From a virus (Duplodnaviria > Caudoviricetes), in the IMG/VR virus record IMGVR_UViG_3300030376_005300, positions 1-64,000 of that record: a stretch of 64,000 bases of DNA. One strand, given 5' to 3'. Shown in pieces: positions 20,471 to 49,300 of this stretch. The notes below the pieces were generated by a model. The model was not told the DNA's origin. It was given only the letters and a program-made list of their open reading frames with translations, and did not search any database. A program made the translations under genes and the position numbers. The stretch's first letter is position 1. The number at the start of each line of letters is the position of its first letter.

Positions 20471-20759
20471 TGGGTTGCTGAAAACTCAAGCCCAGCAAAG
20501 CGTTTTCAATTCCTTGGACAAGAGTACCTATCACTTATCGCTGGACATTCGGAAGCAAGTGACCGAAATGTATCATTCAATGTACAGGGCTCGCTACCGC
20601 CGGAGTAGTAAGTTCCAGCGCAACTACAGTTACCTGACCATTGACAGGACGCTCGCAAAGAGTCAAGGGTGGAAGTGTACGAGCCGAGCGCACATAATAC
20701 AAACCCAGCCTTTTTTGACGCAAATGAGAGATGCATGGGTCTACACGGAGGAAGAATAA
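20451..20759 (+). CDS. basic hypothetical protein
   Basis: ORF with EEE* tail, TAATG overlap. Confidence 0.7.
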   Translation: MGRQRIDGLLKTQAQQSVFNSLDKSTYHLSLDIRKQVTEMYHSMYRARYRRSSKFQRNYSYLTIDRTLAKSQGWKCTSRAHIIQTQPFLTQMRDAWVYTEEE

Positions 20760-22219
20760 TGCTACTCGCTGAGGCGGCAAACATCGCAGAAGGCCTGCGT
20801 AACTTCTATCGCTTCTACATGACGGACGCCGAAGAGCGTTCCAAGTATTTCAGGCGAATCGTTGACTTGATTCGCCAAGGTGTGAACAACTCCATTGACG
20901 ATAGTTCTCAGTTGATTGACATGTACTACCCTGAGTATTCCAAGTACCAGCGGCAGTTCGTTTCATTCCATGAACTACGAGAGGACATCTGCAAGAAGTT
21001 GTCCATCTCTCCACTGGTGTGGGACGAATCAATGGCAGGCAAGCCAGTCGTCCCCCTGCTGGCATTGGAGTCAGCAGAGTACGGCGGTCAAGGATTGACC
21101 GTCAAGCAGGCACTCAACCTCATGGCGAGAATCAAGGACGAAGGCTTCTTCCAAATTGCCAGCAAAATGAATGAGAAAGAAGCACTGCTGTTTTGGGGCA
21201 GGGCAACAGACGAACGCCCTCCCATGCCAGTCAACCGTTTCTTGCAGGCTGTCTCGTACGCTACTGACCGTGGCGCACAGAGCCTGCAATCCATCAATGT
21301 CATGCTCCAAACCATGTCGCCCGCTGAAATCATTCAGCGCCTGTACGGCGACACACAAGACATGGAGGTACGGACCATGCAACCGGGCCAGCCTTTCCTT
21401 GGCCCCATCTACAAGGCGTGGGATAAAATGACTACGCCGGAGGATGTGTACGCTGAGGTAATCACAGGAGAACGGCGATACTTGCACATCACGGAGTTCC
21501 CGAAAGGTACATTCAAAGGTGTTCTCTACAACCGGCACAAGCAAGTGTTCGGCAAAATGTCAGAGTCCATGCTCCCCTACACAGAGGCAGAGGCTGTCTT
21601 TGAAGTGGAGATGGACGGCAGTATTGTCACGAACATGACCGATGTGTACGCACTCGGCAACGACTGGGACATCTACAAACAGGACTACAAAGACAGAGCC
21701 GCTTTGCTGGGAAACCTCAGCCTCAAGGCTCCTGTCAAAGCAGGTAAGTTTGTACCTACTAACACAGATTTCAACTATTTACTTGAGACGCTGGAAGATA
21801 GCGAACGACTGCGCCTATTGTCCACTGGCCCTATCCGCCTTGGAAATGTAGGTGGCTGGGTCATTCTCAAGGACGCTTTTCACATTCGTCTGCTTGTCAC
21901 TGCGGTACGCCGTGATGAAGCGTTTGAAACTCATGTCCGCCTTTCCACCATGGATGGGTACGAAACCTATGAAGTTGGACAGTTGCAGTTAAGTGTAGAG
22001 GTTGCTCAGCATGTGCGTCAGCGCCTCGCCCATCAAGGCGTACTTGCCGGACAGGATTGGATTCCTGTTGACGAGTATGCCATGGTCGTCGTCGTTGAAC
22101 TCAGTGAGTTTTCACTGAGCGACCTGACATTGGAGAAAGCGGACATCCGCTATCTTGATGATGGGTTGGGATACAGCGATGTATCTCAGTTGACTGACCT
22201 CATAGAAATGAGTGCCTGA
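20759..22219 (+). CDS. ATP-dependent DNA ligase homologue, apparently catalytically degenerate
   Basis: PGQPF..P, motif I region AEVITGERRYLH (vs ExKxDGxRxQxH), YNR, VFEVE, TDVY, YKDRAALL, GWVILK; ligase-like length and domain order. Confidence 0.65.
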   Translation: MLLAEAANIAEGLRNFYRFYMTDAEERSKYFRRIVDLIRQGVNNSIDDSSQLIDMYYPEYSKYQRQFVSFHELREDICKKLSISPLVWDESMAGKPVVPLLALESAEYGGQGLTVKQALNLMARIKDEGFFQIASKMNEKEALLFWGRATDERPPMPVNRFLQAVSYATDRGAQSLQSINVMLQTMSPAEIIQRLYGDTQDMEVRTMQPGQPFLGPIYKAWDKMTTPEDVYAEVITGERRYLHITEFPKGTFKGVLYNRHKQVFGKMSESMLPYTEAEAVFEVEMDGSIVTNMTDVYALGNDWDIYKQDYKDRAALLGNLSLKAPVKAGKFVPTNTDFNYLLETLEDSERLRLLSTGPIRLGNVGGWVILKDAFHIRLLVTAVRRDEAFETHVRLSTMDGYETYEVGQLQLSVEVAQHVRQRLAHQGVLAGQDWIPVDEYAMVVVVELSEFSLSDLTLEKADIRYLDDGLGYSDVSQLTDLIEMSA

Positions 22220-22223
22220 CATG

Positions 22224-22255
22224 AAGTCCTTATAAACTGACAATAAAGGAAATGG
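22224..22255 (+). promoter_or_regulatory. early/middle promoter motif copy 5
   Basis: AAGTCCTTATAAACTGACAATAAAGGAAATGG directly before RFC. Confidence 0.85.
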
Positions 22256-23193
22256 AGCGATTCCGAATGAACCTGAGAGAGCAATACCGACCATCCACTT
22301 TGGATGATTTGACGGGGTGCGATGAGTTCCTTAAGTCTGCAAAGACTTGGGACATCAAGACCTGCCCTGCTAACATCCTTTTGGTTGGACCTCCCGGTGT
22401 TGGCAAGACCAGTGCGGCCTACGCACTGGCTAAGGATTTACTTGGCGACTACTTTGACCCTATGAACTTCCGTGTTACCAATGCCAGCGATGACAGAGGC
22501 ATTGACGCTGTGCGAGAACTCAAGCAAATCAGCAAGCGCAAGGGGCTTGGAGTGGCTCGTCGCATTGAGTTCATGGACGAGTTTGAAAGCACGACAGCAC
22601 CTGCCCAAAAGGCCCTCCGTCAAATCATGGAGGAGAGCCACGGTACCACTGTGTTCATTCTCACGGCCAACGACATCACTCCGATTCACAGCGCCATCCG
22701 TGACCGATGCCTGACTTTCTTCTTCAAACCCATAGACCATGAGAACACGGGTCGCTTGGAGTTCATCATTGACCAAGAAAGCCTACCACAAGAGTGGAAG
22801 GAATACCTACCACACCTTATCAAATCTACAGGCGGCTCGCTGAGAAAGGCGATTGACACTTTGGAAAGCATTCCACGAGAGCCCACTGCTCTCGCAGAGA
22901 GCATCCGCCGAGACACTTCGTATCTTAACAAGGCCGCTCTCAATCTCATGGGGAGTGATTTCCCCAAGGTGACTGCATACCTGACCCAAGCACTGGAGTC
23001 GGGTCAGACACGCTTCGGTGTCCTGCGAGGACTCCGCTACCGTGCCAAACCGCTCATGGAGAGCGAGGACGATTGGCACAATTTCATGCTCACATACGGC
23101 GAGTTCGCTGTCTTGTCCACACAGTGGCCTGACGATGACTTGTCGTTTGTGGAATACTTTGTAGCAAAGTTGAAAAAAAATAAGGAGAGATGA
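22252..23193 (+). CDS. rfcS: replication factor C (clamp loader) small subunit (alternative start 22267)
   Basis: EQYRP.TLDD, GPPGVGKT, NASDDRG, MDE, IRDRC (SRC-like), GSLRKAI. Confidence 0.92.
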   Translation: MERFRMNLREQYRPSTLDDLTGCDEFLKSAKTWDIKTCPANILLVGPPGVGKTSAAYALAKDLLGDYFDPMNFRVTNASDDRGIDAVRELKQISKRKGLGVARRIEFMDEFESTTAPAQKALRQIMEESHGTTVFILTANDITPIHSAIRDRCLTFFFKPIDHENTGRLEFIIDQESLPQEWKEYLPHLIKSTGGSLRKAIDTLESIPREPTALAESIRRDTSYLNKAALNLMGSDFPKVTAYLTQALESGQTRFGVLRGLRYRAKPLMESEDDWHNFMLTYGEFAVLSTQWPDDDLSFVEYFVAKLKKNKER

Positions 23194-24434
23194 AGATGGA
23201 AGAAAAGAAGAATTACCCTGATGATGTGTTGGAGAAACTCAACGGATACGCCGAGAAGTTTGGAATCAAAGTCGGTGAAGCGGCGAACAAGTTTCACGAG
23301 TGGTTGAAAGTAGAGTTCATGGTTGAAGACCCATTCAGTGAAGACCCGTTCTACCTCAGCCAATGGTGTGAACAATTTGTTGTTGAAACCCGAAACGCTA
23401 CCGCCGGTCGCCAGCGTGAAACCGTGACTTACATCGGCATGTTTGTCGGCACCGAAGACGAACCACGGGACAACCGAAAGAACATGTACGACAAAGCGAT
23501 GAACATGTTCCGAAACAACCGAGACAAGGCCATCAACGACGGCCTCATCGGTGTCCTCACTGCCAAGGAAGGTAAGTGGTGCATCAACGGTAACGCAACC
23601 GATGAGCGAGTTAATGGGAGCGACCTACCTTGGTTTGGTTTTGAGTACAATGACATGATTCTCTGCCTCCTCACTAACCGTGACGGAAAGGTGAAGCCGG
23701 TCATGCCGAACAGTTTCAGCAAAGCCGCTTACTTCTTGGGCTCACGGGAAGGCGGAAGCGACATTCAGATGTGGCGTGTCAACCTTCAAGGGAAAGCCAT
23801 GGAGGCCAACTACACTCAATGGACTGCGACTCGCATCCATGTTATTGAGCCTACCAAGGCTGGTGCTGACACACTCTACACCAACAACAACTTCCACGAG
23901 ACCGTGGAGTACACAGACACTTGGCTCCCCGAGAACTTGCGTCAAGCGTTCAGCGCAGAGCGTCTGCTTGTCAACGGTAAGATGCACAACGAGTATGTAC
24001 CGTTGGACGAATTGCTTGAGGCTCACCCTGAGCGCAAGATTACGACCAAGAACGGTATGACACTCAATCCCATCATCATCACGAGAGGACTTGTGACTTA
24101 TCTCAACCGAGACCCGATGGATAGCGAGTACGACCCTACAGGGCGCTCTTACCGTCTACAAATCTACGGCCAAGGTGTAGACCCTGTGACTGTTTGGGTT
24201 TCCGGTAGCATGCACGACCGAGACAATGTGTTTCACTACACGGATGTCAACGGGAATGTCCGCCCTTACAATGAGAAGACCAGCGTGATTGTCGTGGGTC
24301 GCCTCAAGTTGCGCCCGTATCAAAACGAAATGCAACCGTCCATGTCTGCTCTTGGTATCTTTATTCCTCCACGAACTGCTCGTCCAGCGGGTGGCGTGGG
24401 AGACACAAGTTTGAATCAATTCCGAGGTGAATGA
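23190..24434 (+). CDS. putative RPA-like OB-fold ssDNA-binding protein
   Basis: Position in replication module, beta-rich C-terminal OB-like segment, C-terminal PIP-like DTSLNQF. Confidence 0.55.
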   Translation: MKMEEKKNYPDDVLEKLNGYAEKFGIKVGEAANKFHEWLKVEFMVEDPFSEDPFYLSQWCEQFVVETRNATAGRQRETVTYIGMFVGTEDEPRDNRKNMYDKAMNMFRNNRDKAINDGLIGVLTAKEGKWCINGNATDERVNGSDLPWFGFEYNDMILCLLTNRDGKVKPVMPNSFSKAAYFLGSREGGSDIQMWRVNLQGKAMEANYTQWTATRIHVIEPTKAGADTLYTNNNFHETVEYTDTWLPENLRQAFSAERLLVNGKMHNEYVPLDELLEAHPERKITTKNGMTLNPIIITRGLVTYLNRDPMDSEYDPTGRSYRLQIYGQGVDPVTVWVSGSMHDRDNVFHYTDVNGNVRPYNEKTSVIVVGRLKLRPYQNEMQPSMSALGIFIPPRTARPAGGVGDTSLNQFRGE

Positions 24435-25477
24435 ATATGAGTTGGGAAGCATTAGCAGAAAACAATGAAGCGAGCAATAAGAAACCAGTGAAGGCGGAGA
24501 CGCTCGCTGAGATTCAAGAACAGCAAACGGTGCCCGTCCAAGCGGCGCAAGAGCCGACTACTGTGAAGACAGAAATGGCGTCCTCTTCCGAGTTCATCAG
24601 CAAGTTCCCTACCATTGCATCCGAGATGAAGTCTCAAGCGAACCCTCCTGCGATTGCACCGAGTTCTACCTTCCTTGCCTTTGTAGGGCACGAAGGTAAC
24701 GGTAAGACGGGGCTCGCCATGGACGCACATGTTCACAAGCACCCTGACGGTCTCGCAATCGTACTTGACCATGACAACGGCGGCTTGTCTTGCAAACAGG
24801 CACACTATGGAGACAGTCGGGATTTCCGTATCTTTTCCCCATGGGTCATGCAACAGGAAGACAGGACGGCTTACAACTACTTGGCGTCTTACAACCGTGC
24901 CATGGACATTGGTAAGTTCGCTGTTGAGTATGCAGAGCGACAAGCAGAACCGGGATACGAAGGGCAACTACTCAAGACATTCATTGTCACTGGTGTAGAC
25001 CAGTACGATGAAATGTGCATCAATTGCATGAAAATCTACGACCTTGACATGAAGGCCACTGATGCTGTTGAAGCAAGCCATGCCAAACTCAATCAGGAGA
25101 TTGGTTGGAACTGGAGCATCCGCTCTACTCGTTTCAAGCAACTGACGGCTATCTGTCAGAAACTCAACCGTCTCGGTGTAGATGTCTACTGGGAGACCCA
25201 TCTCAAGCCCGATGACGGGCTACTGAGCCATGAAGGATTCAAAATTGTGTGGGAGAAGAGTGCTAACAAAGACCTCTTCCAAATTGTGTGGGTCAAATCA
25301 AAGCCTGTCCGTAACAACGACGGTGCCCTGACTGGCGAAACACGCTACACTGCCGAGTTCTACAAGAGCAAGACCAACCCGAACCTACTCAACCAAGAGC
25401 GACTGTACTTCGTCACCAAGAAAGGAGAAGACGCACAGTGGTACGGACTACCTGAACTACGGGACGGTGTTATTTGA
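24431..25477 (+). CDS. RecA/RadA-superfamily (AAA_24/Sak4-like) P-loop ATPase
   Basis: Walker A GHEGNGKT, LDHDNG, divergent Walker B FIVTGVD, ETH. Confidence 0.75.
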   Translation: MNMSWEALAENNEASNKKPVKAETLAEIQEQQTVPVQAAQEPTTVKTEMASSSEFISKFPTIASEMKSQANPPAIAPSSTFLAFVGHEGNGKTGLAMDAHVHKHPDGLAIVLDHDNGGLSCKQAHYGDSRDFRIFSPWVMQQEDRTAYNYLASYNRAMDIGKFAVEYAERQAEPGYEGQLLKTFIVTGVDQYDEMCINCMKIYDLDMKATDAVEASHAKLNQEIGWNWSIRSTRFKQLTAICQKLNRLGVDVYWETHLKPDDGLLSHEGFKIVWEKSANKDLFQIVWVKSKPVRNNDGALTGETRYTAEFYKSKTNPNLLNQERLYFVTKKGEDAQWYGLPELRDGVI

Positions 25478-25487
25478 GCAAGAATGA

Positions 25488-25593
25488 CTACTCAAGGGGT
25501 TTTGTCAGTAAAAACGGGAAGTTCACACTTTGACATAGTGGTTTTGGTGCTGGGTGTTTCTTTCACCATGACCCGTTTTCCCCGCCCGAGTAG
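25488..25593 (+). other. candidate structured RNA/DNA element in intergenic region
   Basis: Nested pairs CTACTC/GAGTAG, GGGG/CCCC, AAAACGGG/CCCGTTTT plus two inner hairpins. Confidence 0.45.
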
Positions 25594-25603
25594 AGGTGAT
25601 AAC

Positions 25604-26365
25604 ATGACAGCATTCAGTATTTCACGAGACAACTTAAACTCTTTTCTGAGTTCGTTTGGTAAGGACTTGATGGACATTGCCATCACGGTAAACCGGGATT
25701 CGGTACATGCGGCGGTCGCTAAGAGCACTCACTACATTTCACGACAGGTGGAGTGCAGTGACACTACTCCCGGCAACCTGTACATCTCCGACATTCCGAA
25801 GGTCAAAGCGTACCTGTCTACCAGCAAAATCCCTGACTTGTCGTTCACGCAGTCGGGCAAGACTGGTACACTTCACATCCGATGCGGCAACACGAGCCTG
25901 CAAATCCCTACGACTTCTTACATTGAATCACAGAAAAAGGTCGGACTGATGAGCAAGACCATTGACAATGCACGAGACAGTATGTGGCGCACATGGTTCA
26001 ACCTTCCGTTGACCCACCACGCAAGAGTTTCAGCAGACTCGCTGAAACCCGCCACCGGCTTCAAGAAAGTGCTGGGCGACAAGTTCGCATGCAAGACCGA
26101 GTTTGACATTGACGATGAATCGCTGATTATCCGTGGCGGGTCTACTAACACGGGTAAAATGTTTGTGAAGGCAGACCTAAGCCATGTAGAGTCAAGCGGA
26201 GTATCTGTCAGGTCAGCCTTTGACAAGTGGCTCCCTGAACTCCTCACCAACCTACCAGCCGGTGAGTTTGAATTGCACACTGGTGACGAGACCGTTCTCA
26301 TTCTTGAGCAGGCTACGAGCAACTTCCTGATGGTTGTCATTGACCAAGAGTACGAGGAGGACTGA
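25604..26365 (+). CDS. putative PCNA-like sliding clamp
   Basis: 253 aa with two-repeat alpha/beta pattern, between RFC and PolB; GAGGTGA RBS. Confidence 0.6.
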   Translation: MTAFSISRDNLNSFLSSFGKDLMDIAITVNRDSVHAAVAKSTHYISRQVECSDTTPGNLYISDIPKVKAYLSTSKIPDLSFTQSGKTGTLHIRCGNTSLQIPTTSYIESQKKVGLMSKTIDNARDSMWRTWFNLPLTHHARVSADSLKPATGFKKVLGDKFACKTEFDIDDESLIIRGGSTNTGKMFVKADLSHVESSGVSVRSAFDKWLPELLTNLPAGEFELHTGDETVLILEQATSNFLMVVIDQEYEED

Positions 26366-26553: not shown

Positions 26554-28898
26554 TAATTGACACCTTTCGCCCTGACCCGGAAGGGTCGGACCACATCTAC
26601 AAGAGGTGGCGTGATGCGGAAGGTAACCTCATTGAAGAAACCGTCACAGACTTCCGACCCTACTTTTGGATTTCTGCGGACACACCACGAGGGTATGTTG
26701 AGCGTGTCCTTGGTAAGTTCCCCGGTGCATCCGTTGACTGGGATGACACAGCCATAGGGCTGAGAACCGAAGAACCCTTAGTCAAGGTCTACGCCTACCG
26801 ACAGGGAGACATTCGTGATTTGTCTCGTCGCTTTGCAAAGACATGGGAGGCTGACCTCAGTCTACAGGACCGATACCTCATTGACGAAGTAAAGGTCATG
26901 CCTCAGTGGAAACCACGAGTGTGGCACTTTGACCTTGAATGGGACACCAAGACTCACGAGACCACGGTCATGGCTGTCATTGACAACTACAATAACCGAC
27001 ATGTTTCGTTCTGTTGGAAGAAGCACAATCCCAACGGACTGTATGACCATGACCATCTCATTGAAGAAAAGACGACAGAGTACGAGTACAAGGGTGAGCA
27101 GATACCTCTGACTTACGAACGCCACCTGTACGGCTCAGAGCAAGAGATGCACGATGCTTTTCTTGCGTACTTGGACGAATGCAACCCTGACATTTTCGTG
27201 GCCCACGCTATCATGTGGGCTGACCTACCTCACCTTACAAAGCGACTCAAGAACTTCCGGCGGCTCAGTCCGCTCGGTAGAGTCCTGCGACCCAGCAAAG
27301 GCTCGTACGACTATGTGGACCAACCTATCATCGGACGCCTCTGCTTTGACACAGCATCGCCGATGCGAAGCGGTAGCGGCTTTGAGCGTGTGTGGAAAGA
27401 CAGCGGTAAGCCTCAGTTGAAGAATCTCAAACTGGACACCATTGCACGAATGTGCAACTACGGTGGTAAGTTGGACATGGATGTATTCACTGGGTGGACA
27501 GAACGCTTTGATGAGTATGTGGACTACTGTATGGTGGACACCTTCCTCTTGAAGCACATAGACGAGGACAACCATGTGCTGAACTTCTTCCTCTCACTAC
27601 AGGAGTTCTGTGGCGTGAGTTTCCGTTCATGTCACAATGTCACTCGGTTTGCACGGGGCCTACTCCAACGCAGGACGGAGTGGAAAGCACCGTCTAAATC
27701 CATGCAAGAAAAGCAAGAGTACGAAGGTGCATTCATTCCACCACCACGCCCCGGCAGGTACGAGGGCGTAGCCTGCGTTGACTACAAGGGTCTCTATCCA
27801 TCGCTTATTCTATCTCACAACTTGTCATGGGAGACGCAAGTCCCCAAGGACATGGCCGACCAAGAAAATGTCAGGCAACTACCTGACGGTACTTGTTGGC
27901 TTCAAGGCGTTCCCGCTTTGCTACCAAGCATGGTCACTGAACTGTTTGAAGTCAGAGACGATTACAAGAAGCGGATGCGAGAAGCCTCCACCGAGTCTGA
28001 GAGAAACGGATGGAACACCTTGCAACTCGCTGTCAAGCGTGTCATGGCGTCACTATACGGTGCAACCGCCAGCGGCTACTGGGGCTGGTGCGACTTTGAC
28101 ATCGCCTCGGCCATCACTGCTTGTGGGCGTGAAGCAATCAAAGGCCTCATGGAAGAATCCGAAGCGGCTGGATACAGCGCACTGTACGGTCACACGGACT
28201 CTGCGTTCGTGCAGGTTCCGTTTGAGGAGGCACCCGCTCTCGCCAAGCATCTCACCGATACCATTCAACGCAAGCACGAAGCGAGCCACCTGTTTGTGGA
28301 GTTTGAAGCCTACATGCCCTACTGGATTGTAGGCGGCAAGAACCTCTACTACGGTATCTGCTCGTTCCCACCGGAGGACGAAGGTAAAGTCAAAAGCGCA
28401 CGATGGGGCAAAATCAGCACGCTCGCTCCCATTTCAAAGAACCTTGAGAACGATGTCCTAACAGCCATCTGTACAGGTGCTTCCGAGGAAGAGGCCATCC
28501 AGTTGGTCAGGCCACTCGCTAAGCGCATCAAGCGAGGCGATGTAGCGCCCTCTGACATCTCTACCACTACAAGGTTGCAAAAGCGACTTGATGACTACGC
28601 TGACGGAGCAGGCGGCGCTGTCAAAGCGGCCCGGTACTACAACGAATATGTAGCCAAGAAAAACCACTATGGCGAAGGAGATAGCGTGAACTGGGTTTAT
28701 GTCAACCGTGTGCCCGAAGGGTTGCCTTCTATAGATGTTGTAGCCTACGAAAATGCCAGCGAACTGGCTGATTTTACACTCAATTATGACCTGATGGTAG
28801 ACAAACTCATCAAGGCTAAACTCAAGCCGATTTTCAAGGCACTGAACTGGGACTTGGAAAGAGCAAGCGGGGCGGCTATGCCCAAACAATACTGGTGA
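26550..28898 (+). CDS. polB: family B DNA polymerase
   Basis: ExoI FDLE, ExoIII YCMVD, motif A DYKGLYPS, motif B KRVMASLYG, motif C YGHTDS, KNLY. Confidence 0.95.
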   Translation: MIIDTFRPDPEGSDHIYKRWRDAEGNLIEETVTDFRPYFWISADTPRGYVERVLGKFPGASVDWDDTAIGLRTEEPLVKVYAYRQGDIRDLSRRFAKTWEADLSLQDRYLIDEVKVMPQWKPRVWHFDLEWDTKTHETTVMAVIDNYNNRHVSFCWKKHNPNGLYDHDHLIEEKTTEYEYKGEQIPLTYERHLYGSEQEMHDAFLAYLDECNPDIFVAHAIMWADLPHLTKRLKNFRRLSPLGRVLRPSKGSYDYVDQPIIGRLCFDTASPMRSGSGFERVWKDSGKPQLKNLKLDTIARMCNYGGKLDMDVFTGWTERFDEYVDYCMVDTFLLKHIDEDNHVLNFFLSLQEFCGVSFRSCHNVTRFARGLLQRRTEWKAPSKSMQEKQEYEGAFIPPPRPGRYEGVACVDYKGLYPSLILSHNLSWETQVPKDMADQENVRQLPDGTCWLQGVPALLPSMVTELFEVRDDYKKRMREASTESERNGWNTLQLAVKRVMASLYGATASGYWGWCDFDIASAITACGREAIKGLMEESEAAGYSALYGHTDSAFVQVPFEEAPALAKHLTDTIQRKHEASHLFVEFEAYMPYWIVGGKNLYYGICSFPPEDEGKVKSARWGKISTLAPISKNLENDVLTAICTGASEEEAIQLVRPLAKRIKRGDVAPSDISTTTRLQKRLDDYADGAGGAVKAARYYNEYVAKKNHYGEGDSVNWVYVNRVPEGLPSIDVVAYENASELADFTLNYDLMVDKLIKAKLKPIFKALNWDLERASGAAMPKQYW

Positions 28899-38714: not shown

Positions 38715-40373
38715 TCATCCTCTCCTATTCCCTAAGAAATAACTGTGTACAGCACCAATTTTCAGGTGATTGTTGAGTGCTTCGGCTGAGTCAGACAGCA
38801 AAAAGAGTTCGTCGTTGTTGGCTACTTTGTGCACGCTGGCCGATTTGATGACAACAGTAGTGGCCCCAACGGAAGCGAGGTGAATATGTCCCAGTTTGTT
38901 TCCATTGGCGGTATAGACGGCTTGGTTGTCAGTGGCAAAAGCGGAAGACGCCGAGGTACCGTCTACGGTGAATGAAGTTGTCCCAATAGCATAGCCACCG
39001 CCGTTGTTGATGAGCACACCTGTACCTTGTAACTGTTGAGAGCCGTTGATAGTGTTCCGACGAGTCAATCCGATGGTGTAGCCCACGCCACGATTCATGT
39101 CCTCGCGCTCAGACAATTGCCAACTGACTCGTACCTTGAAGCCAAACGAAGTAGAGAACTCCTCTACGGCAAACTGCCTGTTACGCTCTTCGCTGGCGTC
39201 AGTGTTGCCGCTGACATCAATTTCTTGGAAGCGTTGCAATACATCTTCCAGCGTCACATCTACTGAGTTTACATGCAGTTCGCTGGTTTTGTCGTTGAGA
39301 TTGATGCGACTGCCGAGGACGATGTAACGCTCATTGTCTGTTCTCGTTTGATACGACACCATGTCGCCGGGGTGCATGTGGCTGGCGGCAGTGACATCCA
39401 CCAGTCTGCGACTGCCCGTGGCGTTCTTCGCCATCTTGAGCATACGCCTTCCTATCGTCTTAGCACTCGCCTTGGTCACTGCCGTAGGTGCGTGGATGCC
39501 ACCCGGTACCTCGTTAATACCGTTCTGCTGTCTGCCAAAGTCGTCAACTTGCACGGCGTTGTTTTGGTTGTTCGCTCTTGCTTTACCACGCACAACGACA
39601 CGGTTTGGTGTATTCTCACTTATCTCTGTTATAGAACCACCAAGAACTCTGTTCTCACCTACGAAGTGTTCACGCTCAATGTGATTCTGAGGGAAATAGC
39701 ACACATTTCCAAAGCGGTCGGATTTGGGACTGTAGCCGTCATGCTTGGACAGATAACGCAGTGCTGTGTACGCTTCTACGCCTAAGAAGTCTTGAGCCAA
39801 GAAAGTCAGGCTGGGCGTGCGAGCCCGCACACCGTTGATGCTACTGGTGTTCGCTTTGGCGACACGGTGAGCCAAATCAGAAGTCCGCAAGCCTACGCCA
39901 ACTTTCTGAGCAAAATGGATGGTTTTGTCGGTGAAGCCGATGGACTTGAGATTGCGACCCTTGAGGTTCTCCAGCCTGAACCGTGTACCTTTGGTAGCGT
40001 CTTGGATTTGCGATACGACGAGGGCTTGGTCGTTGTTCTCAGCGCCCACCACGAGCGCAGGTAGCGTGCTGGCAGTCGTCACCTTGTCCCCGTCAAGGAA
40101 CAACGCCCCTTCGTAGCGAACACTGTCCGATGGGTTGTGAAGCAAACGAATGGTATCTTCCTCTTCAATCAACTTGTAACGCTTCTCCGTGGTCGGCATA
40201 AAGTCCGATTGCGTAGGAGCGTTGACGACAAAGCCAGCGGCAGTCTTGGTGTACTCACCGTGTCGCACAGCGTTGTCAACGAACCGTGGTTTGCGGATAA
40301 CCTTCATGACGGAATCCTGAGCGGCATCAAAACGACCCGTTGAGAGATTCTTGCCCAATGCCATGTTGCTCAC
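38715..40373 (-). CDS. putative tail-tip/baseplate hub protein
   Basis: ALRYLS...DRFGNVCY, NRVVVRG, MHPGDMV...YIV hub-like pattern. Confidence 0.6.
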   Translation of the reverse strand: MSNMALGKNLSTGRFDAAQDSVMKVIRKPRFVDNAVRHGEYTKTAAGFVVNAPTQSDFMPTTEKRYKLIEEEDTIRLLHNPSDSVRYEGALFLDGDKVTTASTLPALVVGAENNDQALVVSQIQDATKGTRFRLENLKGRNLKSIGFTDKTIHFAQKVGVGLRTSDLAHRVAKANTSSINGVRARTPSLTFLAQDFLGVEAYTALRYLSKHDGYSPKSDRFGNVCYFPQNHIEREHFVGENRVLGGSITEISENTPNRVVVRGKARANNQNNAVQVDDFGRQQNGINEVPGGIHAPTAVTKASAKTIGRRMLKMAKNATGSRRLVDVTAASHMHPGDMVSYQTRTDNERYIVLGSRINLNDKTSELHVNSVDVTLEDVLQRFQEIDVSGNTDASEERNRQFAVEEFSTSFGFKVRVSWQLSEREDMNRGVGYTIGLTRRNTINGSQQLQGTGVLINNGGGYAIGTTSFTVDGTSASSAFATDNQAVYTANGNKLGHIHLASVGATTVVIKSASVHKVANNDELFLLSDSAEALNNHLKIGAVHSYFLGNRRG

Positions 40374-43300
40374 TCTCCGCTATGGTCTCCGGTGTTATAA
40401 CTTGCATCACCCTTGCTACCCTTTGGGTGCAGGGTCTGACTGAATCTCGGCTGAACTTCATAGTCCCCTTCCTCGTCGTCCGTAGAGCGACGGCTGGCGT
40501 CAGAACGGAAGTGTTCCAGCGTGTTCTCTGACATGACCATACGGGCCACTGGAGAGCGCACATCGGCCTTGTCGTAGCCACTGACCTCAACGCCCTGAAT
40601 CTTCGGCCCTTGGCTGTCAGGGACGGTCGTACTGCTCGTCGGGACCACGCTGTACACTGGGGCGTACGGAGGACTGCTGGGCGTACCTGTACGGGCCGAA
40701 GGTACATCGCTCGTGAACATGCCGTACTTTCCGCCGGAAGTAGCCCTGTAGAAGTTTGAGCCAGTCTGCGGACCACCTGTGTTGAGGAACGCTCGGAACA
40801 TTTGACTGTGCTTGTGGTCAAGACCGTGAGCAGGTCGGTAAACGAATTGAATTGTACTGTCGGCGTAGTTGATGTTTTCAAGCGCGGGGTCATGGTTGGC
40901 GTCTTGATATGGGTTGGACGAAGAAGACGCTCCTGCCTTGCCCCATCCTTTGACATCAAGGACACCAGCGTGCTTGCTCCATTCCATGATGTAAGTGCCA
41001 CCGAGTGCCCACATAGCGTGAGCGTTGGAGTGCTTGACCACGCCCGTCACAGGCTTGTCTGACCAGTTGAGAGCGGTCATGTCCAAATCCTTGAGCGTGC
41101 GACTACCAACATCGTACGCACCTCGGATGTTGGTGCGCTGTCCCACTTCCTTGTCGGTGTGAAGACTGTGAGCCTCTGTAGACATGACAACATACTCACG
41201 AGACACGCCGTCGTTAAGTTCAGCCAGTGTGTCCACATCCAGTCCGATACGAACATCGTTGCGAGACACGGGTTCTGCTCCTCTGTCGTCAGCGTTGACC
41301 GTTTCGGTCGCTTCGCCAACATGTGCAGATGACTTGAGCAGACCGTCGTCTGCGTTGAGGTCAACACGGTCACTGATACCGCGCTCAACCTCACCATCTT
41401 GCAGAGCAAGATTACTAGGTCTGACGAGCCCTTGTCCAAGGATTGGTTCGGCGGTGCTGTGACTGAGGACGAGGCCAGTAGCGTCGTGCTTTTCGCTGAC
41501 GGCCATGAGTAGACTTTCGTTGAACACTGTCGGCCAGCGTACACCGCGACCATCACCACGGTCACCAACTCTGAGGGCGCTCGCTGGGTTGAACCAGTCC
41601 ACTTTGCTCATATTGGATGCGTTGTTGTTGTCGCTGTTGGTGTTCCCGCTGTAGCGGTCGGTACCGTCTCCGCCAAACAAATCATGAGCGGCAGGGCGAT
41701 GCGTGACATTCGTATCGGCATAAGCGTCTTCGGGGTCCCAAGAAGGTCGCAGGCCGAATCCACGCACAGGGAAACGCCTGACATCTTCGCCACGGGTATT
41801 GCCCCACCAGTCAACCATGTAGTGGCGATGAGCCTTGGCTAACTCTTCTACACCTTGTCCAGCCTCGTCATTAGGGTACATGCGCGTCGTCGTAGACGCA
41901 TTTCTCAGTGTCCGTACAGGGCACCCGAACGGACCCGTCATACGACGACCGTCGCTGTAGCGCACTTGCCTGCCAATTTGGTCTTGCCCGAGGAGGCTGG
42001 AAACCTGTGTGATGCGTTCTAAAATGCCGATGTTCATAGCGACAATATCTTCATCGCTTTCTCCTGAATCGCTTCCGACATAATCCCATCCGTTTGTCTT
42101 GGAGTCGTGTTGGATAAGAGGTCCGTGATAGTAGCCAAGCATAGCATTGCTGTTGGCCACTTCAAGCCAGCCACGGACATATGGTGACCAGCGCGGACGG
42201 TTGTACAGTTGGCGCACGCCCATACGGTACCCGAAGCACCGGTTTCTGTCGTTGGGCAAAGACAGCGTAGCGACCCCTGTAGAATCCTGATAAGTCTCGC
42301 AGTCCATGCCAAAGGTATCACTGCCCCACCCAATCAGTGAGTGACCATAGGACTCCAGTCGGCTAACAGCACCGCCACCATGGCTACCCCCTCCCCAAAA
42401 GCCGAAGAAGTTGTATTTGTTTGAACCAAGTGTACCTCCTTGGTGACTGAGTGTGCCCGCACCGTCAAGTAAAGCATCTATTTCAGCGGCTGTGTATACT
42501 TTACCAGTATCACTCGCTTCGGCAACATACTCTGCTACTCGGACTTGGTTGATGTCTTTGTCAGTGTGTATGCTACAGGCGTACAATTTGGTTCCGTCCG
42601 AGTTCCAATCAAAGCCTGCAATTGAAGCATTGACAGTGCTTCCCCCGTCTATTCGTTGTCCGAGGACGGTTCCGATATTGACACTTGACACAAATGACTT
42701 AGTAGTCATATCAAAAGGAGTAGACAACGCAAACTCGGCTAACTTAGGACTGGAGCCAGCGTAATAGGAAATGAAAACCTTTGTACCGCCGGGTTTGAAT
42801 CGTATGCATGTCATTTGCTCTATTGTATCTCCATCGTCATCGGATACCGCCAACGACACCGTACTTGTTGAAATGGAAGAAGTGATGTCGTAATTTGTAC
42901 TAAGGGTGCTCACCTTTACATCAGCGCCAGCACTCGTCACTATGTACATCACGCTACCGTCATCGTTGAACGCTATTCCTTGAGTAGCACCAAAGGAAAC
43001 GATGTTCAGTGTAGTGGTTGCCGAAACAGAAGTAATGTCAAAAGGTGTAGAAAGAGTCTTCCTTTGTAAATAAGGAGAAGCCTGTCCTACGATATACACA
43101 GAATTGCCACCGTCACCGAAGCAATTTCCTCTTGGACTTTGGTTGTTGACTGAAAGTTCATCCGGCGTTGCTGTAAAATCGGGCAAAGAATTTTGGTCAA
43201 AGGTATAAGCCTTTAATTTCTCACCACTTCCGGGTTCTGTCGTAAGTATCATCTTGGTCGGAGAAATCATCAATTCAACCAATGGGTCGGTTCCAGCACT

Positions 43301-46300
43301 GGTCACAGCGTTACTGCTGAGTTCCGAAAGAGTGTACGAGTTGTCTACGGCAGGGGCTATCCACTCCATTCCCAACGCAAACGGTCCTTTGCTGGCAACA
43401 TAATTGAAATCGTGATAGTGAACTGTTTCAAAATGCTCAGGCACATGGTTGTACGGTTTTTGATTGACAGGTGCATCGGCCACACCCGTGTTAGCGTAAA
43501 ACCCTCTGCTATTGTCGTCGCTGTACCAAGTGAACGGACGACCGAGATTAGGATGCCACATGCAAAGGAACGCGTCAGCCGCCTGTAAGGAGTTCGTATC
43601 GCGACTTCCGTTCGCTAACTGTGGTAAGTTCCTTGTCATTGCACTACTTTCAGAACTCAAAAACAGTGAATCAGCATCGTCGTTATCATAAGGCGTAGTG
43701 AGCCGTAGGATAGTTCCTGCGCCTAAGTTGGCCCAAAACTCAGCAGTACCTGACACTCCCGAGAAGGTGTCACTCTCACCAAGCGTAGCGTGAGCAAGCG
43801 TCCCTGTACGGTTGGTGTAAGTAGCCGTGTAGCGTATACCGTTTTTGAAGTACACCAAGTTTTCACCGTAGTAGGGTTGCACAGGGAACAAGGCGTTGTC
43901 GTCAACGACGATGGTATTGGAATCGTTGTCACTGATAACGATGCAGTTTGGATTAAGGCTCCGTACTCGCTTATGTGGTTCGTAAATGTCAAGGAAACTT
44001 GTAGGGTAGCCAGCGAGTGTCAATTGTGCTCCGACAGAACCGTAGTTGGCTCTGCACAGTTGGTAATAGTTGTCAGGCTTGTGCCACTCAAGGTGCTTGA
44101 ACTTGTCAGCACTGGAAGAGGTAGCACCATCTTTGTGCAATATACCCCACCAAGGTATAGTCAATGTTCGGCCCGGAGTTGACGACTCAAACATACCGGG
44201 GCGATATGGCAGACTTCGCCGTGTAAGCGAAGGACTTGTACTTTCTTGTACACCCAGTGGATTGTACAAAGCGAGCGGTGCCAAGTTGGTAAACTGACTA
44301 CCAGCATCCGGCTCAATATCCAAAATGACTTCGTTGAGTATGACTTCGCATCCTCGTACATCGGCCATCATGGCCTCTGCAAGAATGAGAGCATAAGCCC
44401 CTCTCGTACTCATGTCCTTTTCAATGGCAATTACAGTGTTGACTTGTTGACCGGTAAGTTCTGTGACTTTAGTTCCACCTTCGCTTGGTGCTTTATTTTC
44501 AGTGCTGTGATTAAGATGGAAACCTTGTAGTTGTTGCTTGAACACATTCGGCTGAATGATAATTTGATATGCACCTACTTCAAGAGGGTCGGGGAAATGA
44601 TTGTTCAAGGTATAAGTGTTAGCCGCTTCAAGGACAAGCGTGTGACCTCCTTGCGAGTTGATGGTACCTGCGTTTGAACCTGCACTGGCGGCTATACCGT
44701 AACCCTCGTACTTTACCTTGGTCTCTGTCAGCAGTGTAAATCCTCCGCCGTGAATGTCGCTGGGACCAAACGGTGCTGATGGAGTAGAGAACCAAATAAG
44801 CGGACCTCTGCCATATCCGTTATTTTGCAATGTAGAGGTGGTAGATGTTCTCGTACCCTCCAACGGACCAATAAGCCCTGTGTCAACGGACTTATGATTG
44901 GAACTCTGACAAGCGGTGTTGAGGTCGTACAGTCGCTGGTAAGCAGGGTGAGCGTAGTGTCCGGGCATCAACGCCATGGTAGCGTTGACATGGTGATGTC
45001 CCATTCTTGGTATAGGCATTGGCGTCATTTTTGGTTTGGTCAGGTTGGTGTAGGCTGTGGATGTTGCCGCCATGGCACCAGTGTTCGCAGGTAAATTGCT
45101 GTAAAGCGTGAACCAATCAATGGATTTCATGTCAGGACTGGCACCGCTGTACTCTGCGTGGTCTCGTAAGCGCCTTGCCGCAAACAGCCTTGTTGAACCT
45201 GCGGGCATGTAGTACGATGGGACAACCTTGAGTCCAGTCTTTCCAGTCACGAATGACACAAAGTCGGGACTGTAGACGACACCTGTGAACTTGTTTGTAC
45301 CTATTCCTGTGTACGAAGCGATAACACCTTTATCGGTCGCCGGGTCGTAGACGCGTAAGAAATAACGACCTCCACTTTGTTCGTTTGAATCTGTCCAAGT
45401 AGCGGCTTCGGGCGTAGACCCGACTGTAATTTCAGTACCACTGTAACTGGTGTAGTTCAGTTCGTCAACATCGTACCGATGCGTCATAGACACGCCCATG
45501 CGAGTGACATGGAAGAAGAGACTTCGGTCGTGTGGCTCATAGGCAGAGTCAAGAGGAGCGTTATCGGTATGGTCAGCCCACCCCTCAGATGTAGACGCTG
45601 GGAACTTCAAACGACTGTGACTGGTATCAGACGAAATGTCGGACGCGTCTTGACTGAGATGCTCCCATCCGTTGTTCTCCCATGTTGGAAACAGTCTCGG
45701 TCCCGGCTGTAAGTTGCCGAACATTGACTGGAGTTGAGCACTCGCTTGAGCAGGGTGTTGCAAGCCTCCGCTACCTACAGTTTCGTTTTGATAAGCCTGC
45801 AAGCGGTCAAACCCTGACCTGACTACGATGTTGCCGGGAATTTCATCAGGATTAGGCAAGCGGATTTTGAGGTTTGGATTTACACCTGCACCTGCGAGAG
45901 CAGGAGCGAGGCCTTCAATGTCACGGTCACTGATATGTCGGAAGTCCATAATCACTGTTCCGAGCGGGCTACCACCCTCCAATCGGTGTTCTTGTCCAGT
46001 GTCGTCAATGACGCTGACGCTTTGAAATTGAATGTGTTCATTGGGAATCAACAGAGCGTTTCTAATTTCAAGCGGGTGCTGTTCTGCTAATTGAGGATGC
46101 GCCAACTCCTGTGCCTGAATGATAGGGAACATGGCGGCGTTGGTTGTCTCAAACGAAAACCGGTTGTTGCCAAGGATTTTTTCTCCAACTAATTTGTATT
46201 CACTGTTGTCCTTGCGCTTCGTCCACGGTATCATTCCGAGTCCACGAGCGTTGACAGCGGGCATGGTCACACTGCCGCCGTCCATGCGTTTCCACACGAC

Positions 46301-49300
46301 ATGCTCCGGCAAGAAATTACGAGCCGCACTGCGCTCGTTGTAGTAGTTGTACAGACCTTTGTAGGGCGTTGCGGCGATGTCCAAGTAGTCGTATTGGTCA
46401 CTAATTCCTATACATTCAACACCGTATGTACCCCTGTCCTCGTGGAAAGCCGAGTTCTTCACAACAGACTCGTCCCAAAACAAATCACCGGTTGGATAAT
46501 TACAAGCGTTTGCTCGTACCATGTCACCGCTTTGGATGGTGCGATGAAGTTGCGCGTCAGTAGGGGCACTGCCGACAGCAGGGTAGTCACTGCTGGTCGT
46601 AGGTAATGAAAAACCAGTGTGAACTTGCGCTTCTACATGCGGACCAGCAGTAGCCGTACCGACATACCGGTCTTTATTGTGTACCTTCCCAGTATCCCAA
46701 GCCACTGTACCAGCGTGTTCAATGTTACCCGTCTGCCCAACATGCAACCAGTCTCCCATACCACTTACACCATTTTTGTCAGCCTTCGCAATCAACGGTA
46801 GTTCGCTTTCATGAGTGATGGCTACGAGGTGACGACTGGCAAGACCGTCTACACAGTAGTCTTCGTAGAACGAAACAACAGCACTCTCTCCTGTGAGTTT
46901 ACTGGCGGGACTTGAGCCGCCAACGCAAGTCTCTGCGGCTCCGTAAGGGTTGAAACCTAAGAACGGATGCCACGCTCCTAAACCAGCAGGGTGTAAGTTG
47001 GCACCGATGTCATTGGTAGCCTCGTACGAGTTGAGATAAGAATATGCTTCACCATGCCAACCGACAGCGCCGACCGGCTTAGTTCTATCAACTGCATCTT
47101 GGAATCCACCAAAGTGAACCTGAGTCATGTGGTCTCTTCCCGTTCCCGACGCCGCGTTATTGAAACGATGAGTGCCAGCCTTGGCCCAAACATACGCTTT
47201 GAAACTTGTATCAGGAGTGATTGCACTGCGCGTTTGAGGATTCACAATGTTGGTGTTAGAAGTGATGGCGTTCTTTGCGAGCGTAAATGTGGTGTTTGGT
47301 GCCGATATACTCTGTGAAATGTAAGGTGCGAAGCCAGCGTTAGCACCGTCGCTGACTCTTAACCAGCCATAATCAGGGAGCGTTGTTGCTGTACTGGTGA
47401 CTCTCAAAGAAGCAGGTGTCCCGCTGTTTTCGGCTGTGTACTGGTTTACCTCTAACTCTACCCAACCGTAGCGGTCTTGCTTGTGAGCGTTCTGCATGCT
47501 GGGCATAAAGGTACCACCTATTGCCTTCAATGGGTCTTTACCGGGGAAGGTATTGATAGCGCCGCTGAGGACTGCGCCCAGTTCTTCGGCGTTCTGACAT
47601 CTTGTAGCATCTACGACGACAACATTATCATCCAAGATTTGGTTGTCGGGTGAGCCTCCGTAATAAGTGAGGTAAGCCTTAGCGAGAAGACCAGCAGGGC
47701 GGAAAGCACTTGTGTTGTGCTTCGCACCGCTACCAGTTGACAAGAACGCACTCGCCGCATGGTTCTTGGGGTTCTTCCGTACATGGTCGTCAAGGAAGTG
47801 ACCGCCGGGATGGTACCCTCCGTCCATGTGCCAAACGACAGAAGACTTCCTTGTAGTCGCATGACTCCCACTCCCAACAGCGTTTCCGCTAATGTCGTCA
47901 AAGACATGACTGAACGGGTGATAGTTTTTCGGAAGGCCAGTTATGGCACCTGCTGTACCTTCGTAGAAAAAGGCCATGGATTTAGTTTGCGAGTATGTGC
48001 GAGAACTGGAAGCGTTGACATTTGGGAAACCCTTTGTCGGTTGCCAATTCATAACATAGTTGAAGCCTTGAACATTGTTCTTTTGGAAGAAAGTAGTCAT
48101 AGGTAAATACGCTAACGCTCCGCCTCTGTTGAAACCACTGTGCTCTGTAGTGTCCCCGTTGGCCAATTGATTTGGCAAAAATGAATCTTTGGCAGTGTTC
48201 CCTCCAAGGTAAATTGGTACAGCACTGTAACCGTTACCAGCAGTGACTATGTTTGCACCTTGCGGTTCGGTCGTTGCTGTATTATGCGGAAAGGCCTGCC
48301 CCGGTCCGAAAATCATGTAAGTAGTCGCATCGCCTGTACTACCGTCATGCCTGTAACGAGCATGGGCATGGGCGAAACGCAAGATGACAGGGCTCGGGAC
48401 ATTAGCATGAACAGAATTACTACCATCGGTGTAATCCAAGCCTGTCACCTTGCTGTTAGCACCTTTGGTCATATCAAACGGTAGTATGGCATCTTGATTG
48501 AAAAACGGAGGATGGTTTTGTCCTTTGTGCTGGTCAAGGTACACTGTTCCGGGGAACATGGCCATCATGGCATTGGTATCAAGCAGTGCGAATGACCCAG
48601 CGATTTCTCCTACATTTTGGAAACCAGCAGAGCCAGTGGGTCCATTGGCGTAAGGATGTGTGTAGAAATCAGAATAATCGTTCTGTGTACCGTCATTGAT
48701 GTCCGTTACCACGCCGCTAAAACCGCCACCGAAATAGAGTGGGACATAATGGTCAGGACTGTCTCGTCCGCCTCGGAAATACAGGAATGGGCTGGAGTTT
48801 TTACTACCGGCTATTCTTACACCATCTATTTGAGAAAAGTCGCGATAAGTAGAGTTCCGCTTCCAAAGTATGTCTCCGCCTGCTGGGTTAGGGAACGCTA
48901 CAGGATTGGTGCTCTTACTTTCAATCGTGACTACTTCTTCGGGGTCGGCTACACCTGCCTTGCTCCTCACTCTTGCCCAAGCGTTACTGCTGTGCCAAAC
49001 AATAAACGGCTCGCCCCAACTGTTAGCAGTATCAGACGCAGGCTTACCAAGCAACGCCCACGATTCGTTTGTGGCTACACTGATGTCAGGGTCAGAGAAG
49101 GAGTGTACTTCAACACAAGGAGAGTCCACTCGTGGAATGATGTGGTCACCTGCAATGTCGGTGAAATTCTCCCCTCTCAGATTTTTCTGCCAGTCAATGA
49201 TGTCTACTGTGTTATTCTGACTATCAACAAGTACAGGGGTCGCTGTATTTGCATTGGTCCCTCTGTATTTTGTACTAATATGCAAGACTGTCTTTGGTAT

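Follow-up and report, generated by a model that had tools for sequence, protein, structure and literature searches.

ATP-dependent DNA ligases of the Lig1 type, such as those of A. fulgidus (3gde) and P. furiosus (2cfm) and human Lig1, are built from a DNA-binding domain (DBD), a nucleotidyltransferase (NTase) domain and an OB domain. Ligases encircle DNA and dock on PCNA. Roles that do not involve catalysis have also been described: vaccinia A20, for one, has as its middle domain an inactive DNA ligase that lies within the polymerase processivity factor (PMC11142717), and catalytically inactive Lig4 has a structural role and supports end joining (PMC11754673). The papers on magroviruses list an 'ATP-dependent DNA ligase' in a nearly complete archaeal replisome (PMC5434244, PMC12999244). 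Here, we report that the virus record IMGVR_UViG_3300030376_005300 of IMG/VR, of which positions 1 to 64,000 were analysed (the window, meaning that whole stretch of DNA), harbours a gene whose product, the pseudo-ligase, is a homologue of the archaeal-type ATP-dependent DNA ligase of Lig1 type. As judged from its sequence and those of its relatives, this protein is catalytically inactive, the Lys nucleophile and other AMP-contacting residues having been lost throughout the family. We put the probability at roughly 0.6 that it is a non-catalytic replisome factor exapted from a ligase, with nick sealing left to the LigA of the host.

The pseudo-ligase has its DBD, NTase and OB domains in the same order as the Lig1-type ligases, but differs from them in being without an adenylatable Lys, in being shorter and acidic and in falling below all Pfam ligase thresholds. 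Poxvirus A20 and monkeypox A22 resemble it in holding an inactive NTase and OB pair under selection, and A20/A22 is a structural part of the viral polymerase holoenzyme. A20, however, consists of NTase and OB only, embedded between other domains, and bridges the polymerase and UDG, whereas the pseudo-ligase is a stand-alone and complete three-domain homologue in an archaeal virus with PCNA and RFC. In VIA-align the A22 chain (8wpf_B) matched the pseudo-ligase model with a Z of 7.3, far below true ligases, and the two are most simply seen as independent inactivations within one superfamily. The m3G-cap-binding domain of snurportin-1 is likewise an NTase fold without the catalytic Lys and acts by binding only; it comes from capping enzymes, however, is without DBD or OB and belongs to a different biology.

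The gene and the parts of its product are arranged as follows (positions in the window; aa, amino acids).

20759..22219, plus strand: pseudo-ligase gene P0001, 486 aa, with DBD, NTase-like and OB domains and a C-terminal helix
20759..21358, plus strand: helical N-terminal domain (residues 1-200), equivalent of the ligase DBD (model helices 3-196)
21371..21874, plus strand: NTase-like domain (residues 205-372) without catalytic lysines (fold match, hhalign mapping)
21455..21475, plus strand: motif I remnant E233-V-I-T-G-E-R239 (hhalign columns)
21602..21610, plus strand: motif III remnant E282-V-E284, aligned onto E-G-E with Glu kept (hhalign)
21806..21820, plus strand: motif IV remnant R350-L-R352-L-L, Glu changed to Arg and Lys column deleted (hhalign onto E-G-x-x-x)
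21857..21871, plus strand: motif V remnant W367-V-I369-L-K371 (hhalign, homologue columns)
21875..22156, plus strand: OB-fold domain (residues 373-466), motif VI arginines lost (model, VIA-align, hhalign)
22157..22216, plus strand: C-terminal tail and helix G471-x-S-D474-x-x-Q477-L-T-D480-L-I-E (conservation, hhalign)

An AlphaFold2 model of the pseudo-ligase, with 27 homologues as input, reached a pLDDT of 82.7 and is laid out as a helical domain (1-196), a beta domain (217-370), an OB-like barrel (374-467) and a terminal helix. Foldseek against the PDB gave 113 matches at E<=0.001, and the top 50 listed were all ATP-dependent DNA ligases of archaeal, Lig1, LigIII and LigIV kinds (best E 4e-14, probability 1.0). 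VIA-align, which is independent of Foldseek, aligned the A. fulgidus ligase 3gde with a Z of 17.1 over 445 residues, and in a viral structure library the top matches were DNA ligases, for example that of Halogranum tailed virus 1 (E 5.6e-13). Taken domain by domain in VIA-align, the N-terminal part matched the DBDs of LigIV (Z 11.9) and Lig1 (Z 10.0), and the NTase-like domain matched that of LigIII (Z 15.1, rmsd 2.9 over 162 residues). A profile of the family was also compared by hhalign with a profile of 24 genuine ATP-dependent ligases taken from Thermoplasmatota genomes; the family profile aligned over its full length in 445 columns with a probability of 98.1% (E 8.5e-13), and a second run gave 95.4% (E 1.8e-8). 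Homology to bona fide ligases is detectable at the profile level only. No match to PF01068, PF04675 or PF04679 of Pfam appeared even at E 10, and searches of PHROGs by sequence, of PDB chains by single sequence and by family profile, and of a phage collection by tblastn and megablast returned nothing. The original prediction had ascribed a ligase-like architecture to this protein, and it was correct in this, since fold and profile alignment agree where standard domain searches are blind.

The active site is lost well beyond a single residue. The prediction had read E-V-I-T-G-E-R at 21455-21475 in place of motif I, and those positions do encode it; hhalign places E233-V-I-T-G-E-R239 onto E-Y-K-Y-D-G-x-R with one residue deleted, so that the adenylated Lys corresponds to Ile235 and the motif I Asp to Thr236, while G237, R239 and H243 are kept in the region. 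This loss is family-wide: position 235 is Ile in 29, Met in 11, Val in 6 and Leu in 2 of the 48 full-length homologues from viral contigs and Lys in none (0/48), and none of 21 distant homologues, down to 18% identity, has the motif I Lys (0/21). Motif IV is as unrecognisable as had been stated, with R350 (46/48) at the position of the Glu, R352 in 48/48, and the Lys column deleted. The first motif V Lys is Ile369 here and Val, Ile or Leu in the family, the second (K371) varies between Lys, Gln and Asp, and the aromatic of motif IIIa (Phe) is replaced by Thr294 in 43/48 or by Asn. In the OB domain E-K-A-D-I is aligned onto the R-F-P-R-F of motif VI, the R-F-P-R of which is needed for self-adenylylation. 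Retained from ligases are E282 and E284 of motif III (48/48 each), the motif whose Glu contacts the ribose, and, in hhalign, the Asp of motif IIIa, the E-R that follows this motif and an OB turn of the 'G-x-G-F' type. An alternative Lys in the pocket is argued against by one observation, namely that the alignment of the 21 distant sequences contains no conserved Lys column. Lys at 236 (9/48) or at 237 (5/48) was considered as a shifted nucleophile and rejected, as neither is conserved.

Strong conservation is found at both ends of the protein. L101-A-x-E104-S105 and E141-A-x-x-F-W146 are invariant in its N-terminal domain; the C-terminal helix is among the best-conserved stretches of the family, with G471, D474 and Q477 invariant down to 18% identity. 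It was rejected as a new motif, since hhalign aligns it with the terminal helix of ordinary ligases, A-T-T-x-x-E-I-x-E-M-Y. The G-x-S-D-x-x-Q-x-x-D-L helix is inherited from ligases, is under far greater constraint here and is a candidate contact surface.

The open reading frame (ORF) of 486 aa is intact, as first described. It begins with an ATG at 20759 behind a GGAGGAAG ribosome-binding site, its start codon and the stop of the preceding ORF overlap in TAATG, and its own stop is at 22217-22219; the start is fixed by the N-terminus MLLAEAA, which is common to the homologues. Relatives of about 484 aa form 58 clusters from marine metagenomes at 39-98% identity, and more distant ones reach 18%. 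In viral contigs the family occupies 55 loci, from which 48 full-length copies were extracted, all of them intact (48/48). The protein is about 100 aa shorter than cellular archaeal ligases. Ratios of non-synonymous to synonymous substitution (dN/dS; pairwise Nei-Gojobori, 93 pairs at 80-99.8% identity) were 0.01-0.15. The window gene and its closest relative differ with a dN of 0.015 and a dS of 0.39 (ratio 0.039), and pooling over ten pairs gave 0.037 for the DBD, 0.056 for the NTase and 0.027 for the OB domain, with zero non-synonymous changes in the last 20 residues in 10 pairs. Across relatives the pseudo-ligase diverges at about the same pace as the neighbouring genes. The low dN/dS shows that this is a functional protein under strong purifying selection and not a relic, in line with the earlier view that the gene does not look like a decaying pseudogene.

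The 64 kb of the window open a virus record of 100,986 bp whose completeness is judged to be 98%. The virus is a magrovirus, of the order Magrovirales and infecting Poseidoniales archaea, since its gene content matches the published description, in particular that of clade A with thermosome and SNF2 (PMC5434244, PMC12999244). In the whole genome no active ligase was found with the Pfam models for ATP-dependent, OB, RNA and NAD+ ligases, PF09414, PF04679 and PF01653 being without matches; the second ligase that the prediction had suggested looking for is thus not found. In the six genomes with the pseudo-ligase family, the window's and those of five near-complete relatives, PF01068 matched nowhere (0/6) except in a degenerate structural-protein domain. 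In a six-frame scan of the genome for K-x-[DN]-G, the only K-A-D-G-Y-R belonged to the prohead protease (Pfam Peptidase_S78), a coincidental occurrence.

The degenerate ligase-like domain lies past the window at 71611-77304 of the genome (minus strand; L002:7611-13304), with counterparts in L001 and L059-L063. It is part of an ORF of 1,897 aa in the structural module, located between the genes for portal and prohead protease, in which PF01068 scores a sub-threshold 23.6 bits over motifs IIIa-V only. By hhalign it matches archaeal ligases with 77% and the pseudo-ligase family with 88%. In place of the K-x-D-G-x-R that would be expected, six genomes have S-[HAVD]-[MF]-P-[EK]-G-[EP]-R, and Arg is at the motif IV Lys. 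This domain also looks non-catalytic, the nucleophile being absent by eye in a motif I that is outside the profile alignment, and it is probably the 'structural-module ligase' of Philosof 2017.

Downstream of the pseudo-ligase are the following replication genes.

22252..23193, plus strand: RFC small-subunit-like clamp loader (Pfam AAA, DNA_pol3_delta2; PHROG clamp loader E 5e-36)
23190..24434, plus strand: conserved 414-aa protein, overlapping the RFC gene by 4 nt (synteny)
24431..25477, plus strand: 348-aa P-loop protein with Walker A G-H-E-G-N-G-K-T (motif read from the translation; synteny)
25604..26365, plus strand: viral PCNA sliding clamp, 253 aa (homologue alignment, model, Foldseek)
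26898..28898, plus strand: family B DNA polymerase (Pfam DNA_pol_B E 3e-31)

The order pseudo-ligase, RFC, 414-aa protein, 348-aa ATPase and PCNA is kept at 55/55 viral loci, and the same five-gene order is present in a contig whose pseudo-ligase homologue has 21% identity by BLAST and 18% in the alignment. RFC, which begins 32 nt past the pseudo-ligase in the window, is 3' of it on the same strand at 55/55 loci and directly adjoining in about two thirds. The gap in these, which include the closest relatives of the window, is below 50 nt or replaced by an 8-nt overlap (L007). An insert of 0.6-1.4 kb separates the two genes in L032-L038, L041-L044, L046, L050-L051, L053 and L055-L056.

Active counterparts were found in sister viruses by an archaeal ligase profile search of viral contigs. 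At 25 sister loci, in magrovirus contigs of 90-96 kb (L176-L203), there is a ligase of 494-524 aa that matches cellular ligases at E 5e-57 and is about 80-100 aa shorter than the cellular archaeal ones. It is encoded on the same strand as RFC and the 348-aa ATPase, 2.4-3.5 kb upstream of them, and is thus like the pseudo-ligase in length, strand and position upstream of the block from RFC to the ATPase. The pseudo-ligase family finds its best profile match in these viral active ligases (88.6, E 1e-10, vs 67.9, E 1e-7, for cellular ligases), but the sister enzyme keeps an intact K-Y-D-G-I-R-A-Q-I-H. The dead and active kinds never co-occur in the genomes examined, the pseudo-ligase family being found in 0/5 active-ligase genomes, two of which are 100% complete. 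In a maximum-likelihood tree of RFC, which is unrooted and has two long branches, one branch with 100/100 support parts the genomes with the dead version from those with the active one.

The viral thermosome has its nearest cellular relatives in Poseidoniales, at about 40% identity. In this putative host order PF01068 was present in 0/101 sampled genomes, vs 56/81 in the phylum, and a bacterial-type NAD+-dependent LigA of 676-743 aa was present in 5/5 genomes (loci L144-L146). The pseudo-ligase family was found in 0/101 Poseidoniales genomes searched.

We suggest the following course of events. The ancestral magrovirus replication block would have had, in front of the clamp-loader genes, an archaeal-type ligase that was functional, and one lineage would have lost the entire adenylylation apparatus, once; the pseudo-ligase would then have diverged fast and subsequently have been strongly constrained in place. 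Its survival may be owed to a structural job shared with ligases, that of holding DNA, or PCNA, clamp loader or polymerase, at the lagging strand, and nick sealing would have been left to another enzyme, most simply the NAD+-dependent LigA of the host. The protein may grip DNA, or it may, by analogy with the inactive ligase domain of poxvirus A20, serve purely as a protein scaffold. The roles put forward in the original prediction were an exapted nick- or end-binding clamp, a replisome scaffold, or a decoy that shields nicks from host sensors or competes with host ligase. Exaptation is the right frame, given the strong purifying selection, and a replisome role fits best because the gene belongs to a conserved block with clamp loader and PCNA and takes the slot of the sister active ligase; the decoy or anti-host part is without support, and competition with host ligase is less obvious since the putative host order uses a bacterial-type NAD+ ligase.

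A more specific version, in our estimate unlikely, would have the pseudo-ligase act together with the single RFC subunit and PCNA as a subunit that recognises nicks or 5' ends, mark lagging-strand nicks, direct clamp loading or retention there and hand the nick to the bacterial-type NAD+ ligase of the host. Such an accessory would have evolved because the host order is without an ATP-dependent ligase of its own. If true, it would represent a new kind of clamp-loader or Okazaki-maturation accessory derived from a dead ligase.

Several observations weigh against a replisome factor that arose in this way. The pseudo-ligase has a pI of 4.9 and a net charge of -20 (-4.1 charges per 100 aa), a poor fit to a DNA clamp; it is the most acidic DNA-handling replication protein in the window, and its OB domain has a net charge of -7 and a single Lys. 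This acidity mildly disfavours nick or end binding. The replication proteins were also scanned for PIP boxes and a shared C-terminal motif; no canonical PIP box came up, and the S-Q-L-T-D-L-I-E tail of the pseudo-ligase does not recur in the others. The direction of change, from active to dead, is suggested by parsimony and the unrooted tree, and the host assignment is indirect, based on the roughly 40% identity of the thermosome to Poseidoniales homologues and on the literature. Furthermore, the NTase-cleft residues R239, H243, E282, E284, D295, R313 and R352 are still invariant in the close family, and the cleft may have kept a ligand-binding or residual chemical function.

These cleft residues are what an enzymatic explanation would build on, together with selection on the NTase domain that is as strong as on the rest (dN/dS 0.056). 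The pseudo-ligase would then use a non-canonical nucleophile or perform a lysine-independent step, such as sealing pre-adenylated nicks, of which lysine-less ligase mutants are still capable, or removing AMP from abortive intermediates. Sealing of this lysine-independent kind, however, normally depends on the lysines of motifs IV and V, and here the losses also take in the Lys of motif IV, the first Lys of motif V, the Phe that stacks on adenine and the arginines of motif VI. The wider family has no invariant column of Lys or His, the Pfam ligase models are without a match even at a permissive E of 10, and a surviving enzyme is to us very unlikely. Even less credence is given to a ligand sensor whose NTase cleft would regulate replication through non-covalent binding of a nucleotide, a cap-like structure or a 5'-phosphate end. 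The former active site is lined by the conserved R239, R240, R313, R350 and R352, and the snurportin cap-binding domain matches residues 211-378 strongly (Z 12.8, rmsd 3.9, VIA-align), but the whole chain matches three-domain DNA ligases, including the DBD and OB that snurportin does not have, and the base-stacking aromatic is lost (Thr294).

A role outside the replisome, in which the dead ligase hides viral nicks or ends from host nucleases or sensors or titrates a host factor, is unlikely. A nick could plausibly be capped by a ligase scaffold that has no chemistry, acidity is shared with many DNA mimics, and the first 20 kb of the window contain many small, fast-evolving genes typical of host takeover. 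The pseudo-ligase gene, however, is outside this variable early region and heads a conserved block in every relative, to 18% identity. It evolves at the pace of core replication proteins, and sits in the slot of the working ligase of sister viruses, and no homologue of it was found in 101 host-order genomes. The only explanation that is refuted is that of a decaying pseudogene or mis-called ORF: it would account for the loss of catalytic motifs and nothing further, and is contradicted by the intact reading frame in all full-length copies from viral loci, the 58 database clusters, the low dN/dS and the confident fold. A non-catalytic replisome factor thus remains our preferred reading.

As for the remaining gene content, the plus-strand block comprises an SNF2 helicase, the RFC-like clamp loader, PolB, a PD-(D/E)XK nuclease, a primase-large-subunit-like protein, an ERCC4 nuclease, a DnaQ-like exonuclease and a thermosome subunit, and the minus-strand block contains the tail, capsid (MCP), protease, portal and terminase genes. 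The 414-aa protein, for which Pfam, PHROG and Atlas gave no lead, is translationally coupled to RFC and the P-loop ATPase and kept in all relatives; it may be an SSB or the large clamp-loader subunit that is missing. The 348-aa gene overlaps it by 4 nt and probably encodes the RadA-like ATPase listed among magrovirus genes by Philosof 2017 (PMC5434244). The PCNA model has a pLDDT of 89.2 and matches the T. kodakarensis PCNA in Foldseek (E 2e-11, TM 0.69). Its start, M41 at 25604, is common to 16 homologues and lies 120 nt inside a longer ORF from 25484, and the 40-residue N-terminal extension (ORF 25484-26365) is probably not translated. In the structural or tail region a single ORF of 5,486 aa (40370-56830, minus strand) adjoins one of 809 aa with a Laminin_G_3 (ConA-like) domain, and may be the large protein with a LamG-like jelly roll that has been mentioned for viruses of Poseidoniales (PMC11706807). 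A 9.6-kb contig from a 'Parvibaculum sp.' metagenome-assembled genome (L064, NZQM01000180.1) has a thermosome 83% identical to the viral one, vs about 40% for archaeal genomes, and most likely comes from a magrovirus and was mis-binned with the bacterial genome.

In the literature, of which coverage was incomplete, no inactivated ligase was found in magroviruses or any archaeal virus; the reuse of a dead ligase in a viral replisome is already precedented in poxviruses. In the surface ocean, magroviruses rank with the most abundant viruses. Annotation of the pseudo-ligase as 'DNA ligase' by fold transfer would be wrong: in this large lineage the sole full-length ligase homologue is predicted to be unable to ligate, and the published low need for the host would then fail for nick sealing. 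The family offers a natural case of a replication enzyme turned pseudoenzyme, in a switch that is compatible with a single event on the clamp-loader tree, and the case comes with an active counterpart in sister viruses as a natural active control and with a host that has a different (NAD+) ligase. Non-catalytic ligase roles have so far been those of poxvirus A20 and of Lig4 scaffolding, and may now be tested in a simple archaeal-type system.

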